Notes under the pieces: generated by a model
What the model was told of the DNA's origin: nothing
Database searches by the model: none
The model's input: the letters and a program-made list of their open reading frames with translations, nothing else
IMG/VR virus record: IMGVR_UViG_3300017783_000009
Reading direction: 5' to 3' (one strand)
Length of the DNA: 64,000 bases
Origin: an uncultured virus (IMG/VR IMGVR_UViG_3300017783_000009)
Lineage: Duplodnaviria; Heunggongvirae; Uroviricota; Caudoviricetes
Part shown: piece after piece, positions 48,692-61,177 of the stretch
How the letters are laid out: each line of letters opens with the position of its first letter
Numbering within the stretch: position 1 is the first letter of the stretch
Translations under genes and position numbers: made by a program

Positions 48692-48912
48692 TAGCTACCA
48701 GTCAGCCTGAACAAATTCCTGATATATTAAAGAAATACACAGACCAACACAAAAAATTAGAAGAAAATTATCTCGACATCGTGATAAACAGTGATGGCGC
48801 ATTCAGTTATCAGGATATTATTCAGATGCCTTTGCCAAGTATTGTTTTACTGGTAGAAAGGCTTAACAAACGTGCAGAAAGAATGAGCGGTAACGCTAAA
48901 CAGATGTTATAA
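48682..48912 (+). CDS. 76-codon -1 frame extension of the gp26-like gene (position and size similar to gp51)
   Basis: Open frame RRLIATSQPEQIPDIL...FSYQDIIQMP...KQML with no ATG/RBS at its start; begins at a slippery sequence. Confidence 0.7.
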   Translation, partial: RRLIATSQPEQIPDILKKYTDQHKKLEENYLDIVINSDGAFSYQDIIQMPLPSIVLLVERLNKRAERMSGNAKQML

Positions 48913-49336
48913 GTTTATAATAGTCTATTGGCCAACTATCATAGTATTTTGTTGTGTGTAGATACTTGCGTTTCTCTGTCAAATCATCTCTCAATTGAAT
49001 AAAAACACAATTTGTAAAGTTCTTTGCAAAATGTCCGCTGGTTGTTGTACTGGTAAAATACAACAAATCATTGTGTTTTTGCATCTGTTGTTCAATTATA
49101 GTTTCAACCTCAGACATGTTACATCCATCAACCCAAGCAATTCCTATCTCATAGATTTCCTTGTCAAATGTTTCATATGATTGTGTAAGATTATCTCTAG
49201 CATCAATAAATTGAATTTTATTTTGTAATCGTGCTTTCCTTGCAAAAGGACAAATGGGAAATCCATCCAACTTCTTAGCTTCAATTTCATTTTCTGTCCA
49301 CTCTAGAAATTTGTTCTGGAATTCTTGGAAGTTCAT
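48896..49336 (-). CDS. Hypothetical protein (CPFA motif, possibly DUF1415-like)
   Basis: WTENEIE...PICPFARKA; late promoter 49467-49474. Confidence 0.65.
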   Translation of the reverse strand: MNFQEFQNKFLEWTENEIEAKKLDGFPICPFARKARLQNKIQFIDARDNLTQSYETFDKEIYEIGIAWVDGCNMSEVETIIEQQMQKHNDLLYFTSTTTSGHFAKNFTNCVFIQLRDDLTEKRKYLHTTKYYDSWPIDYYKLITSV

Positions 49337-49489
49337 ATATGTCTCTGTTTTCTTGATGTCTACGACATCATCATCTTCATAAAGCTATCGCTTTATTCGA
49401 TGTTTTTTGCTATCGCTTGTAATACTTAAAGAATAGTTATTACTAAAGAAATGATTTCTATATTGATATTTATCGAGGTAACTTGGTAT

Positions 49490-49834
49490 GATGTTTCAGT
49501 CACACTTAGCCAACTAACGGCTAGGTGAAACTGAAAGTCTTGGATTAGACGTCCCTCTACACATACTATAGCAAACCTAATTTTACACTTAGGAGAGGCG
49601 GTTACGCTGTACCTCTATTACATGCTGCTCTTAAGCAACGCAGGACCACCCATTGCCATAGTATGCGACTTTGGGCTACCTGTGAGTTCCAATTTTCCAG
49701 GAGAGCTCACTCTTTTTGGTTTGTCAAACCAGTGCTTTGACATTGTGGCAACACCAGGATCTGATCACACAGATGTGTAATCTCAAGGTGAGTCGAGCAA
49801 TCCCGACCAAACTGAGCCTTCAGCCTGTATTAGC
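49490..49834 (-). ncRNA. Candidate ~345-nt highly structured non-coding RNA with two predicted pseudoknots, family not recognised
   Basis: About 10 contiguous helices plus a 14-bp long-range pairing; imperfect pairs are G-U on the minus strand; no ORF in the track. Confidence 0.8.
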
Positions 49835-50386
49835 CTAAACTATATGATTTGTATTTGAGCCATTAATTGACAAATTCTTAATTTGTCTAGTATTAGATTC
49901 TTGTGCCTGGAAGTCTTGCCAAAAAGTTATTGTCCATGAGCCATAATTTTTACTTGTATAATATATATAGCGTTCAGATTTAAATTTGTCAACCAAATCT
50001 TTTGGAAAAGCTATATAAATGCCTTTTCTATTAAATTTCATAAACAGTAGATCTAAATCGTTGTCGTCATGTGCATCTAATGTTTGTTCTAGCCATTGTT
50101 CTAGTAGTGGTATTGGTTTTTCTTGTAATAATTGATGAAATGGAAAGTCTGCATAATTTTTACATTCGCAGTTAAAATATTTCCAGTCATCTGGAGGGAT
50201 TACATCACCCTTAAATGCCTTGATTTGATTTTCTGTAAGTGTACTCTTACGTGCAGCATTTATGCCGCCAACAAATGCGCCACTATACGGCACACGTTCA
50301 AAATTGTCTTGGTAGATCTCGCTTAAAATGTTACAGACTTCTCTTTCAAAGCCTTTACCCTTGTTTTTACTTTTTGATCCACTCAT
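49835..50386 (-). CDS. Hjc-like PD-(D/E)XK nuclease, probable Holliday junction resolvase
   Basis: KGKGFEREV...SGA...GDVI...ECKNY; downstream of gp46/gp47. Confidence 0.82.
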   Translation of the reverse strand: MSGSKSKNKGKGFEREVCNILSEIYQDNFERVPYSGAFVGGINAARKSTLTENQIKAFKGDVIPPDDWKYFNCECKNYADFPFHQLLQEKPIPLLEQWLEQTLDAHDDNDLDLLFMKFNRKGIYIAFPKDLVDKFKSERYIYYTSKNYGSWTITFWQDFQAQESNTRQIKNLSINGSNTNHIV

Positions 50387-50591
50387 CTATTTTTTTCTTC
50401 ATTTTGTAGATTATGTCTTTTCCTAACATGCCTTCTTCTATTGTGTATACAGCATGTTTTATATGAGAACCTTCTGGCTCTAAATCTAGCTCTAAGTTCT
50501 TTATTTTTTGGGCAGGAAGTCTTAGTGTTTTTCCTGTATCCGGATCAATTAAAATTAAGTCACCGTCTTCTAACCCTTCATATTTAGGCAT
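50367..50591 (-). CDS. Small hypothetical protein (MPKYEG...)
   Basis: Overlaps both neighbours and fills the gap in the operon. Confidence 0.6.
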   Translation of the reverse strand: MPKYEGLEDGDLILIDPDTGKTLRLPAQKIKNLELDLEPEGSHIKHAVYTIEEGMLGKDIIYKMKKKIDEWIKK

Positions 50592-52356
50592 CAACAATTT
50601 CTACTTCTGTATTAAATGTAGTAAATCCATTTTCTTTAGTAACTTGTAAAACATTATTCACACGACCAACTAACTCATCTCTGTGAGATATAAGTAGAAT
50701 ATTTTTATTACGGTCTCGTTCCATTTTCTTCAAAATACTAAGTGCGCTTTCTACACCTATTGTGTCCATTCCACTATCAACTAGTTCATCAATGCAAACT
50801 AAATTAATAGGATGGTTCATACTTTCAAACACATCACGGAAGCTCCAACTAAGTCCTAAAATAAGTCTATTACGTTCGCCTCTACTTAAATTATCAAAAT
50901 CTAAATCTTGACCAAGTTGTGTAATAGTTACTGTAAGATCACTTTGGAATTGCACCTCATGTGGTAAACCTAGTCTTGTAATATAGTATTCAAGACGTGT
51001 GTTTAAGAATTGTAAGTTTTGTTCAATAATTTTTTTACGTATAAAACTATCTTTGTTTGTTAATAGTTTTAGTAAAAAATCCTGATGTTCTTTCAGTTCC
51101 GTAAGTCTATTTACCTCCGACCATTCTACCTCTTGAAGTCCTGTCTCTTTTAGTGCTTCAATTTGTTCTGTATATGGATCAGTTTCTTCTTCTGTGTTAT
51201 CTATGTTTGTACGCAATGTACTTAGTTTGCTCTGATGCTCGTATACTTCTTGTAATGTATTGTATTCCATACGTGGTGCATCACTAAGTTCACCTAGCTC
51301 AGCTAGTGCGCTTTTATAATCTTCTATTTTAGCAGTATCTTCGTCAATGTGTGATTGACTTTCATTTACTGCTTCTGTTTTTGTTGCTACAACATGAGTA
51401 TGTTTTTCATCATGTAGCTCTTGTCCACAAGCATAACATTTATGGCCAAGTGTTGTATCTAGATCTTTTTGTGCTTTGTTAAGACGTTTTTGTTCTCTAT
51501 CAATAGCACTAGTTAGTCTAGCTATTTCTGCATTTAAAGTATCTAATTGATTTTTTTTACTAGTAAAATCTTCAAAGTCTGCATGAGCTTTAATTTCTAC
51601 ATCAATATCTATATGTTCTAATGCAAGTAATTCGCTTTTTAGTTGTTTTCTTTTATCTTCTTTATTTGTCCCCCACACACGCTGTCTACGTTGTAGATCA
51701 GATATGCTTTTATTAATTCTCTCATTTGCTTCTTCTACTGCACTTATTCTAAATGTTTCTTGTTGTATTTTATCTTTTGTATTTTTTGCAAGTTCTTTTA
51801 AAATATCTGCTTTTTCACTAAGTTGTGTTATACCTAGTAGTTGTTCAATAAGTTCTCGCTGATCGTTTGCTCGCATACTTAAAAATGGTTCTGTATATGT
51901 GTTCAATGCACATATATGCTTGAACATAGTATGACTCATACCTAGTGTGCGTTCTATAACAGTTTGCGTTTGACGCCCTTCACCCTGTGACTCATCTGTG
52001 CCATCTGTTGTATCTGCATCATTAACAATAAACCTAAAAATATTTGGCTTGCGACCACGTTCAATACGATATTGTTGACCATCTTTTTCAAAGTCAACAG
52101 TAACTATCATTTGCTTATTATTTGTTTTATTAACAAGATTATCTTTTTTAATGTTGTATAATGCATTACCATAAAGTGCATAACTCAATGCGTTTACAAT
52201 TGTTGTCTTACCTGTACCGTTACGTGAACCATCACCGCCCAAGTCTATGTTGTTACCCAACACAAGTGTTAATCCTGTATGGTCAAATGTTACAGCCTGT
52301 GTAACATTGCCTACACTCATAAAATTTTTTACTGTGATATTTTTAATAATTAACAT
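50584..52356 (-). CDS. gp46: Rad50/SbcC-like recombination ATPase (gp46); start refined to MLIIKN
   Basis: KNFMSVGN, NGTGKTT, CYAC zinc hook, LSRGE signature, CIDE, ISH. Confidence 0.95.
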   Translation of the reverse strand: MLIIKNITVKNFMSVGNVTQAVTFDHTGLTLVLGNNIDLGGDGSRNGTGKTTIVNALSYALYGNALYNIKKDNLVNKTNNKQMIVTVDFEKDGQQYRIERGRKPNIFRFIVNDADTTDGTDESQGEGRQTQTVIERTLGMSHTMFKHICALNTYTEPFLSMRANDQRELIEQLLGITQLSEKADILKELAKNTKDKIQQETFRISAVEEANERINKSISDLQRRQRVWGTNKEDKRKQLKSELLALEHIDIDVEIKAHADFEDFTSKKNQLDTLNAEIARLTSAIDREQKRLNKAQKDLDTTLGHKCYACGQELHDEKHTHVVATKTEAVNESQSHIDEDTAKIEDYKSALAELGELSDAPRMEYNTLQEVYEHQSKLSTLRTNIDNTEEETDPYTEQIEALKETGLQEVEWSEVNRLTELKEHQDFLLKLLTNKDSFIRKKIIEQNLQFLNTRLEYYITRLGLPHEVQFQSDLTVTITQLGQDLDFDNLSRGERNRLILGLSWSFRDVFESMNHPINLVCIDELVDSGMDTIGVESALSILKKMERDRNKNILLISHRDELVGRVNNVLQVTKENGFTTFNTEVEIVDA

Positions 52357-53386: not shown

Positions 53387-54268
53387 TTATTCTCCAGATT
53401 TTTGTGCTGCTTTTTCTTGCTTTTCTTGCTCTTTTTTGAGATCTTCTTGGATAGTTTCCCATTCAGCATTAAAGATACGTGTCATTGAAGGATTTAATCC
53501 ACCTTCTTCTAACAAATCATCTCGTATATTTTGACTACGTTTTTCTAAATTTAGAACTCTTGTAAAGGAGTTATTAATAGCCGCTGTGTAATAAGCAAAA
53601 GGATTCTCACTTTTTGCTTCATTAAACTGTAATCCAATTTGTGATAGTTGTAACAGTGCCTGTCCACGCATCTCATCTACATAAGTGTATCCACGCCAGT
53701 TTGCTCTCATACTGTAACGCTCGCATAACTTAATATAAGCACGAGCAAGTGCAGGAGTTGTGATTCCATGTTCTACACTAAAGTATCCATTATCTTTTCC
53801 GCCTGCCCAATGACTACGAGCAACCTCTTCCCACTTACCACTTATTTTTGCATAATGTTTAAAAGGAGGAAAGTTACACTTTGAATGATAATCTGCAACT
53901 GTCTTTGGTTTGTTTTTTCTTTGCTCTTCGGGTATATGTTCAAATGTCATAACACGAACTACTAAATCTTCATCAGCTATATCATCAATATTTACTGCAA
54001 AATCTGCACCACGTGGTTTTGTTTTCTTACCTGTTAGACCTTGTTCCCAACGTCTAACTTCAGCTTCGTGTGCAATTTTTTGTAATCTTTTTGCTCTATT
54101 TTGTTTGGCTGTAAAAATACTATCTTCGTTTATATCATCAAATGAACTAATAATTAAATCATAATGTTTAAAATCGTCATCACGTGTCCAACAATAAGTC
54201 ATTTTGCTATTGTGGATTTCACGCAACAAGTCTTTGTTTGTTAAGTAATGTTGCCTCGTTTTGGTCAT
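53387..54268 (-). CDS. gp55: Late-transcription sigma factor (gp55-like) with a long insertion
   Basis: HYLTNKDL, NWRGYTYVDEM, FNEAKSENPFAYYT...NSF; upstream of gp47/gp46 as in T4-like phages. Confidence 0.85.
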   Translation of the reverse strand: MTKTRQHYLTNKDLLREIHNSKMTYCWTRDDDFKHYDLIISSFDDINEDSIFTAKQNRAKRLQKIAHEAEVRRWEQGLTGKKTKPRGADFAVNIDDIADEDLVVRVMTFEHIPEEQRKNKPKTVADYHSKCNFPPFKHYAKISGKWEEVARSHWAGGKDNGYFSVEHGITTPALARAYIKLCERYSMRANWRGYTYVDEMRGQALLQLSQIGLQFNEAKSENPFAYYTAAINNSFTRVLNLEKRSQNIRDDLLEEGGLNPSMTRIFNAEWETIQEDLKKEQEKQEKAAQKSGE

Positions 54269-60628: not shown

Positions 60629-61177
60629 TTGCCCAGTGTATTACTTTTAAATGCAGATGCATTACCATTGAGTCTATTACCACTAAGCACAATCAGTTGG
60701 CAAAGTGCTATCAAGACAATGTTTGGACAAAAAGTTCATGTAGTAAAAAACTATGAAGGTAGATACATAAGGTCTACAAGTTTAAGCATACCCATGCCCT
60801 CTGTGGTGATGCTCAGTAAATATCACAAACAACCAGCAAAAGCAAAATACACACGCCGCAATGTTTACATAAGAGATGATTATCGATGTCAATATTGCGG
60901 TAATTCTTTTAGTCACGACAATCTTACGTTAGATCATGTTAGGCCTAAATCAAAAGGCGGCAAACTGGGATGGACTAATACAGTTGCAGCATGTGGACCA
61001 TGTAATGTTAAAAAAGGTAGTAAAATTATTAAACCACTTAATATACCATATAGACCAACATGGCACGAAATAAACAACAACAGCAAGTATTATCCACTTA
61101 GTATACCGGATCCTAGCTGGCAAGATTTTATAAATTGGCCAGAAGATCAGCTTAAAATTGTCCCGTTAAGTATATAG
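60629..61177 (+). CDS. HNH endonuclease (McrA-like)
   Basis: RDDYRCQYCG, TLDHVRPKSKGG, WTNTVAACGPCNVKKG; TTG start after GAGG. Confidence 0.92.
   Translation: MPSVLLLNADALPLSLLPLSTISWQSAIKTMFGQKVHVVKNYEGRYIRSTSLSIPMPSVVMLSKYHKQPAKAKYTRRNVYIRDDYRCQYCGNSFSHDNLTLDHVRPKSKGGKLGWTNTVAACGPCNVKKGSKIIKPLNIPYRPTWHEINNNSKYYPLSIPDPSWQDFINWPEDQLKIVPLSI

Follow-up and report, generated by a model that had tools for sequence, protein, structure and literature searches.

What does a phage encode in some 350 nucleotides (nt) that hold no open reading frame (ORF) and lie directly behind a small nuclease gene? The stretch of DNA analysed here, hereafter the window, comprises 64,000 nt of an uncultured virus (IMG/VR record IMGVR_UViG_3300017783_000009; Caudoviricetes). 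The gap in question lies on its minus strand, between a PDDEXK_15 nuclease gene at the end of the gp47-gp46 module and an ORF of 146 amino acids (aa). An earlier note, made from the sequence alone, had described this gap as GC-richer, as beginning at the nuclease stop codon and as folding almost end to end on the minus strand, and had proposed an uncharacterised large non-coding RNA. Our analysis shows that the interval is the gene for a stably folded, non-coding minus-strand RNA of about 340 nt, a member of a phage-specific family built of two parts.

A folded non-coding RNA on the gp46 strand

The GC content of the first ~350 nt of the gap is 45-47%, against 30-34% in the flanks. Conservation, as judged by blastn and alignments, begins just past the nuclease stop codon and ends shortly before a conserved ATAAATA sequence. 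The minus strand of the interval folds at -124.1 kcal/mol (z = -4.09), a value that none of 100 shuffled sequences equalled; the plus strand of the same interval folds at -107.8 kcal/mol (z = -3.57). The element is not a protein-coding gene. No conserved ORF was found in 44 homologues, in which the median number of stop codons per frame was 3.5-5. A stop-free frame in any register occurred in only four of them, and their lengths were scattered over all three residues modulo 3. The composition and the stop counts bear out the first description of the gap, and the shuffling test bears out its minus-strand folding. G-U pairs were frequent and conserved on the minus strand: one U-G pair was invariant in 41 of 41 sequences, and another pair was G-U in 21 and A-U in 18. 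Therefore, selection acts on an RNA of the gp46 strand, as the earlier note had argued from such pairs.

Covariation was examined with a structure named from the window sequence. Its pairs were counted on three alignments, with slid partners as the control. On a raw MAFFT alignment of the 228-nt core (44 sequences, at most 88% alike), 80.0% of cells paired, against 34-44% with slid partners, and 47 of 62 pairs changed on both sides. None of 500 shuffles reached the observed percentage paired or the covariation score, and two of 500 reached the observed value for further pair types. When one helix was re-registered and 41 sequences were compared over the first 160 nt, 86.2% of cells paired (38-45% slid), with double-sided changes in 34 of 43 pairs. 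The cleanest test relied on 72 matches (42 of them distinct) that had been gathered through gp46 alone, with no selection on the RNA. In the 42 distinct sequences 93.8% of cells paired, against 37-43% slid, and 35 of 43 pairs varied on both sides. The comparison with related phages that had been suggested in the earlier note thus reveals heavy compensatory change across a family present in more than 100 viral contigs, and we regard the element as almost certainly a genuine structured RNA family.

All members share a 3' core of about 230 nt, and their 5' domains vary (Table 1). The loop of hairpin Hc/Hd carries the 5' strand (49667-49658) of a long-range pairing. This is a true 10-base-pair (bp) pseudoknot: the helix was absent from the aligning model, 94.5% of cells paired, and eight of the ten pairs changed on both sides. 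In a register-free test of helix Hx, the mean best native helix was 4.28, versus 3.32 for non-native combinations, with 14 different complementary sequence pairs. An earlier register of Hx (AGCA, 49629-49626), which paired in only 52% of cells, was replaced after this test.

Most of the helices drawn in the earlier note survived these comparisons. Covariation supported GGUCGG/UCGACU and GAUUACAC/GUGUGAUC in the 5' domain, GUGAG/CUCAC and CAGG-GCCCA/UGGGU-CCUG in the core, the hairpins AGAGG/CCUCU and CCUAA/UUAGG, and the terminal stem. Two helices had to be given up. The helix CUGGUGUU/AGCACUGG was missing from the consensus fold, where CACC/GGUG pairs instead, and the hairpin GUUGCU/AGCAGC was replaced by the 6-bp Hx that closes the three-way junction. 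The 14-bp loop pairing was real as the 10-bp pseudoknot, but its GGCAA/UUGCU part gave way to Hx. For the proposed UGUCAA/UUGACA knot, GUC and UUGAC are invariant and give no covariation signal either way; UUGACA lies within the GGUUUGACAAACC hairpin. A loop contact between GUCAA and this hairpin is possible.

Table 1 Features of the RNA element and its two neighbouring genes, in window coordinates.
Feature	Position	Strand	Basis or remark
Whole RNA element (5' leader, 5' domain, 3' core, conserved tail)	49480-49834	-	blastn, alignments, GC content; exact ends approximate
PDDEXK_15 nuclease ORF, upstream neighbour, outside the RNA	49835-50386	-	Pfam PF24608, E 1.3e-24; phrog_244
146-aa ORF, next gene downstream	48896-49336	-	Starts ~500 nt past the end of the nuclease ORF
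CUAAUAC, single copy of the CUAAYAY unit	49827-49833	-	Alignments
5'-domain hairpin GGUCGGG/CUCGACU	49791-49808	-	RNAalifold; one pair GC:18, CG:9
Long-range helix CACC (49790-49787)/GGUG (49755-49752)	49752-49790	-	One compensatory CAUC/GAUG
Variable hairpin GAUUACAC/GUGUGAUC inside the CACC/GGUG helix	49782-49763	-	Sequence varies, pairing kept across rows
Invariant GUCAA (49741-49737) and hairpin GGUUUGACAAACC (49730-49718)	49718-49741	-	Hairpin covaries, GC:18, AU:10
Helix Hb: GUGAG/CUCAC and UCC/GGA, invariant internal loop GCUCU ... AAC	49682-49710	-	100% and 99.2% pair; 7 of 8 double-sided
Hairpin Hc/Hd: AGG/CCU and GCCCA/UGGGU	49642-49681	-	96.7% and 89.6% pair; 7 of 8 double-sided
Joining strand with near-invariant CUGCGUU	49627-49641	-	Columns invariant or at least 90% conserved, in 90 and 41 sequences
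Three-way junction (helix Hx, hairpins Hf and Hg)	49570-49626	-	
Closing helix Hx	49626-49621 with 49575-49570	-	6 bp; 86.3% of cells pair; 5 of 6 compensatory
Hairpin Hf	49616-49594	-	97.1% pair; U-G closing pair and 11-nt loop near-invariant
Hairpin Hg	49593-49576	-	89.9% pair
Pseudoknot 3' strand (AUAGUAUGUG), pairs with 49667-49658	49560-49569	-	10 bp
Small hairpin Hh	49550-49537	-	52% pairing, poorly aligned
Long terminal stem Hi, near-invariant GGCUAAGUGUGA strand	49536-49494	-	17 pairs, 10 double-sided; 73.7% pair, unrefined alignment

Searches against Rfam 15 returned no match at the gathering score in the whole window. At E up to 10 over positions 49300-50000, no match fell inside the element and two chance matches fell outside it. 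Neither the group I and II introns, RNase P, glmS, HDV-like, twister and hammerhead models nor those of GOLLD, ROOL, OLE, HEARO and raiA matched the element at E up to 10, and ARAGORN found no tRNA or tmRNA gene in the whole window. The earlier statement that no tRNA, tmRNA, intron or riboswitch was recognisable here therefore agrees with these searches, and the proposal of an uncharacterised large minus-strand RNA is supported by the strong conservation, the covariation and the absence from Rfam. Among diverse relatives, Rfam searches at E up to 5 gave only RF01718 and scattered weak matches elsewhere. Matches to DUF805b at the 5' edge of the core in two loci (L248, 22.9 bits; L082, 15.7 bits) were below its gathering score of 35.6 and were taken as chance.

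Distribution of the core and its 5' domains

With the nuclease protein as bait, 39 viral-contig loci were collected, and blastn located the element directly behind the orthologous nuclease gene in 27 of them. The match extended over about 245-367 nt at 73-100% identity in 16 loci, covered the shared 3' part alone (query nt 139-286) in nine, and consisted of short 5' pieces alone in two. A two-part core pattern (CUGCGYU ... GGUAYMGCNYAACCGCC) matched at least 120 IMG/VR viral stretches. The same pattern gave three matches in prokaryotes (one genome each of 185,579 species). These three and one viral match (L065) are chance matches, since neither the sequence profile nor the covariance model recognises anything past the 17-nt loop; the absence from prokaryotes holds as far as the strict pattern can tell. 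The profile matched 148 of 163 sources, and the 15 misses were one truncated locus, ten distant nuclease loci (L030-L039) and the four chance matches. Three family members compared by blastn with 50,697 phage records gave no match. Therefore, the family seems confined to uncultured phages. A whole-genome model search of Phosso, PA5oct and Atu_ph07, the cultured jumbo phages with the nearest gp46 (46-50%), yielded no convincing match, the best being one 24-bit match in Atu_ph07.

The covariance model R1 has 154 positions and describes the core with Hb, Hc/Hd and the three-way junction, the pseudoknot being left out of the aligning model. In the 64-kb window it had a sole match (49559-49716, minus strand; 142.9 bits, E 2.8e-38), a score that follows by construction because the seed includes a sequence (L001) identical to the window. 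Independent support comes from 72 R1 matches in loci anchored on gp46 and from the pair counts above. The window RNA belongs to the family defined by this shared 3' core. Loci were also examined for the 80 best of over 608 gp46 relatives (55-100% identity). Wherever 1700 nt or more of sequence follow gp46, the core is present (58 of 58 loci), on the gp46 strand and 699-2597 nt past that gene; the 12 loci that lacked a profile match all end too early. The RNA is a core feature of a clade of uncultured aquatic T4-like phages.

The 5' domain of the window (49834-49717, minus strand) was derived as an RNAalifold consensus fold of 28 sequences. In six of 47 related loci scanned, the 5' domain is instead the Rfam family RF01718 (Polynucleobacter-1), with scores of 38-95 bits (gathering score 37). 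Each match is on the strand of the core, immediately 5' of it, and ends a few nt short of its start (in L082 the match spans 1277-1418 and the core starts at about 1431). In one group of marine relatives this domain is present in a diverged form. The window gave no RF01718 match at the gathering score, nor at E up to 10 over 49300-50000, and its own 5' domain has a different fold, with three helices. The window RNA is thus outside RF01718 as defined, yet it is a member of the same larger, undescribed RNA family, in which one core is joined to interchangeable 5' domains. The earlier view that no known family is involved holds for the element in the window, but not for the relatives in which RF01718 forms part of the same RNA.

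Polynucleobacter-1 was introduced with 16 sequences from Burkholderiales and from fresh water or estuary, and a table of that paper marks it "RNA: y, cis-reg: y, switch: ?" (Weinberg et al. 2010, PMC2864571). In the published alignment, rows of 135 and 172 nt stop where the core begins (PMC2864571). Our literature search found no other work on Polynucleobacter-1 or RF01718 beyond this paper, and no description of the ~230-nt core, which is also absent from Rfam 15. A 2023 catalogue of more than 10,000 viral structured-RNA candidates has models 29-151 nt in length; pieces of this RNA may be among its entries (PMC10690425).

The 5' edge of gp46-linked copies carries CUAAYAY units, in one to seven copies about 11 nt apart. 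The window has a single copy, and arrays occur in relatives (L008, 3544-3580; L013, 3538-3640; L249, about 1290-1360). In L249 a sigma-70-like promoter precedes the repeats and the RNA body follows them, and therefore the repeats are probably transcribed. The units resemble iterons or a protein-binding array.

Copies, neighbouring genes and possible modes of action

What the RNA does was weighed against its genomic settings. We tentatively favour a free, trans-acting RNA, either a scaffold or a ribozyme-like molecule, and give this reading slightly less than an even chance. The RNA would act in trans as a free, precisely folded molecule, serving as a scaffold for some partner that the entire phage clade has in common, or containing a ribozyme-like core, and it would neither serve the adjoining nuclease nor regulate the adjoining gene. 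We infer discrete release or transcription of the RNA, action in trans, and binding or catalysis. The reading is favoured because the RNA is independent of the nuclease type, because paralogues without a nuclease have promoters, and because no downstream gene is constant.

The paralogues were found in a 317,722-bp viral contig (G002; gp46 55% identical), which has four copies of the core, at approximately 12, 120, 252 and 315 kb. A sequence of the form TTGAC(A/G)-17 nt-TAnnn(T/A) was found by eye 95-250 nt upstream of each copy. The strict promoter pattern was met by three of the four, with about 0.16 expected per 300 nt of non-ORF sequence (background 44 occurrences in 42 kb of non-ORF sequence in this contig). 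Only the gp46-linked copy has a nuclease neighbour; the neighbours of the other three carry LPD29, dCMP-deaminase or poly(A)-polymerase-head domains, or no domain. ARAGORN found no tRNA or tmRNA gene in the four RNA loci. A second contig has two core copies and four fragments have one each. CheckV completeness was 85% at 318 kb, 66% at 236 kb and 34-55% at 124-192 kb (G002, G004-G008), implying genomes of about 350 kb. Therefore, members of the clade are likely jumbo phages and not ordinary 170-kb T4-like phages. G002 also has 24 tRNA genes at 137-150 kb (L257, L258), 22 of them in one array. One of its tRNAs has a CUA anticodon and was called tRNA-Pyl by ARAGORN; it may be an amber suppressor.

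Dispersed copies with sigma-70-like promoters are what one might expect of a replication-origin or primer RNA, a folded transcript that would form a persistent RNA-DNA hybrid in the AT-rich DNA downstream and prime replication. Very AT-rich sequence does lie right behind each copy, gp46-linked copies have the iteron-like CUAAYAY units, and the site is at the end of the gp47-gp46 recombination module. However, the conserved pseudoknot, junction and loop nucleotides exceed what hybrid formation needs, and the CUAAYAY repeats are missing from the other three G002 copies and from Polynucleobacter-1-type loci. Nor did the four G002 copies show any pattern relative to gene-strand blocks or the tRNA array; they have no consistent relation to gene-strand switches, and none is near the 24 tRNA genes. 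We consider an origin or primer role unlikely.

The position of the RNA also raises the question of the nuclease, which the RNA might guide, activate or restrain; a scaffold or guide RNA for this nuclease had been suggested in the earlier note. Our neighbour census took in the 73 distinct RNA loci whose upstream sequence was long enough. Immediately ahead of the RNA is a gene for a SegE-type GIY-YIG nuclease in 43 of them (assigned through Pfam PF19835; E 3e-33 in L082) and for PDDEXK_15 in 25. A small nuclease gene thus ends at most 500 nt upstream, on the same strand, in 68 of the 73 loci, and in four inspected of the remaining five one of the two nucleases is encoded one ORF further upstream. 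This constancy, and the presence of two unrelated nuclease folds in the same slot, would suit a partnership. Against it, both unrelated nucleases are found in front of the same core and even of a single 5'-domain type. The RNA is also lacking from ten loci that encode PDDEXK_15 homologues at 48-50% identity, and three of the four G002 copies have no nuclease-domain neighbour. The RNA is independent of which nuclease precedes it and occurs in several copies in one genome, and we find a nuclease partner very improbable.

The alternation of the two nucleases behind gp46 and ahead of the RNA (PDDEXK_15 in the window; same slot in L040-L242) is a second small puzzle. It could also reflect a non-orthologous replacement of a recombination nuclease or a turnover of free-standing homing endonucleases. 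Close by, a 76-aa ORF (50367-50597, minus strand) without a Pfam or PHROG match overlaps gp46 at its end and the nuclease gene at its start, and a good part of the relatives have an ORF of 70-98 aa at this place. Elsewhere in the window, an HNH endonuclease ORF (60629-61177, plus strand; phrog_16726, E 8e-35) within the baseplate cluster probably encodes a free-standing homing endonuclease.

On its downstream side the RNA could be a cis-acting mRNA element, either a stabiliser or insulator in the 3' untranslated region at a convergent junction, or else a leader or riboswitch acting on the gene downstream. Its location on the gp46 strand at the operon end in 58 of 58 loci, the "cis-reg: y, switch: ?" mark given to Polynucleobacter-1 in the table of PMC2864571, and the same-strand ORF 190-450 nt behind three of the four G002 copies are consistent with such a role. 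Yet the 146-aa ORF is missing downstream in many loci, where the next gene is a convergent baseplate-hub gene, and at least 27 of 101 loci have neither this ORF nor a known same-strand gene downstream, the next gene being convergent. No same-strand downstream gene is constant, and the RNA is not a cis-regulatory leader or riboswitch in that sense. In the window, moreover, the conserved ATAAATA separates the RNA from the next ORF, and protection of a 3' end needs a hairpin only, not conserved loops and a pseudoknot. We therefore attach little probability to cis action.

The ATAAATA sequence (49467-49473, minus strand) lies 20-45 nt past the terminal stem and is invariant in 14 of 14 close relatives. 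It resembles the core of the T4 late promoter, TATAAATA, and a gp55-like late sigma factor is encoded in the window (53387-54268). Therefore, the 146-aa ORF behind it probably belongs to the late genes and has a start of its own. Its leader contains two small conserved hairpins, AAAGCGAUAGCUUU (49381-49394) and GAUGAUGUCGUAGACAUC (49355-49372), both on the minus strand, which covary in relatives (e.g. CAAAGCGUUAGCUUUG and UAUUGCGUUAGCAAUA) and may form a translational operator.

RNA libraries gave weak hints of expression. A metatranscriptome contig of 2035 nt runs from the end of gp46 through the nuclease gene into the element as far as 49615 (its first 220 nt). A 229-nt contig from an oligo-dT RNA library covers 49486-49714, which is nearly exactly the core. 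Two further RNA runs (X18 and X19) cover neighbouring ORFs only, and the uncovered parts are uninformative. The co-transcription with gp46 and the nuclease gene proposed in the earlier note thus has some slight support from the one contig that connects gp46 with the element, but in G002 each copy is preceded by its own promoter-like site.

The same contigs touch on the idea of a self-processing ribozyme, whose core would cleave itself or the operon transcript, setting the 3' end of the gp47-gp46 mRNA or freeing the RNA. Catalytic RNAs typically show such a size, a pseudoknot and invariant nucleotides in junctions and loops, most copies are at the 3' end of an operon without their own promoter or terminator, and the ends of the contigs at 49615 and at 49714 and 49486 are a faint hint of processing. 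However, contig ends do not mark RNA ends, the ribozyme families of Rfam 15 show no similarity even at the relaxed threshold, and the G002 copies, with promoters of their own, need no release from an mRNA. Self-processing seems improbable to us.

Several observations weigh against a free trans-acting RNA. A sigma-70 scan of the window gave fewer promoter-like sites than shuffled sequences and no convincing promoter for the RNA itself; the sole candidate was TTGTCA-18-AATCAT, with 9 of 12 matches. No intrinsic terminator was found in 49480-49840, where A-rich sequence follows the terminal stem. The RNA-library contigs carry no ends, strand or level, and may come from DNA carry-over. The invariant loops of the RNA suit ligand binding or catalysis as well as protein binding. 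Finally, every gp46-linked copy has a small nuclease gene upstream, so that the link to the nuclease is weakened only.

A bolder possibility, which we regard as doubtful, is that this is a new class of large RNA essential to a clade of aquatic jumbo T4-like phages, in the form of a modular ribozyme, an RNA machine that assembles itself or an RNA that specifies an origin. If so, a universal ~230-nt pseudoknotted core would have been overlooked while only one optional 5' domain was catalogued (as Polynucleobacter-1, in 2010), and the paralogous copies would suggest a dosage-dependent or site-specific role early in infection. The core is a compact target for in vitro folding, cleavage and binding experiments and for cryo-electron microscopy, though the phages are uncultured.

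Comparison with known structured RNAs

New classes of large, intricately folded RNAs are rare, and RNase P, group I and II introns, OLE, GOLLD, ROOL and HEARO/omega-RNA each opened up biology. The OMEGA RNAs (the omega-RNAs of TnpB and IscB; HEARO) resemble the RNA described here in being structured, a few hundred nt long and located immediately behind a small nuclease gene, 3' of it and on its strand. However, the nucleases here are of the PD-(D/E)XK and GIY-YIG types and not RuvC-type TnpB or IscB, the RNA begins past the stop codon and has no overlap with the nuclease gene, and one core occurs with two unrelated nucleases or, in some copies, with no nuclease, besides the lack of a HEARO match in Rfam.

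ColE1 RNA II and the R-loop RNAs of T4 oriF and oriG are origin transcripts. They have in common with the present RNA that they are promoter-driven structured transcripts with AT-rich DNA behind, several per genome, near replication or recombination genes. The structure of the present RNA is far more elaborate and conserved, and its copies are not consistently placed with respect to switches of gene strand.

Group I introns, RNase P RNA and glmS are of similar size and likewise have a long-range pseudoknot and invariant junction nucleotides. Apart from the lack of an Rfam match, no gene is interrupted here, and the helix order is different: in group I introns P3 and P7 flank P4-P6 and P8, and RNase P has its P4, whereas the knot of this RNA joins a hairpin loop to the strand behind a three-way junction.

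GOLLD and ROOL are linked to phages and tRNA genes. Like these two RNAs and OLE, the present RNA is large (340 to more than 500 nt), multi-domain, pseudoknotted and phage-borne and can be multi-copy; it differs in having no Rfam match and in not lying beside tRNA genes. GUCAA and UUGAC, two invariant loops of complementary sequence, might in principle link one molecule to another, and GOLLD and ROOL are described as forming homo-oligomers (PMC12286853).

The closest likeness is to Polynucleobacter-1, which is one domain of the same family and, in the six loci mentioned above, adjoins the same core on its 5' side and on its strand. The habitats also agree (fresh water, estuary and marine). The window RNA differs in its own 5' domain, which has another fold and no RF01718 match, and the core is not part of any Rfam 15 family. 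The present finding supplies the context, and a much larger partner domain, for an orphan Rfam family that has been unexplained since 2010.

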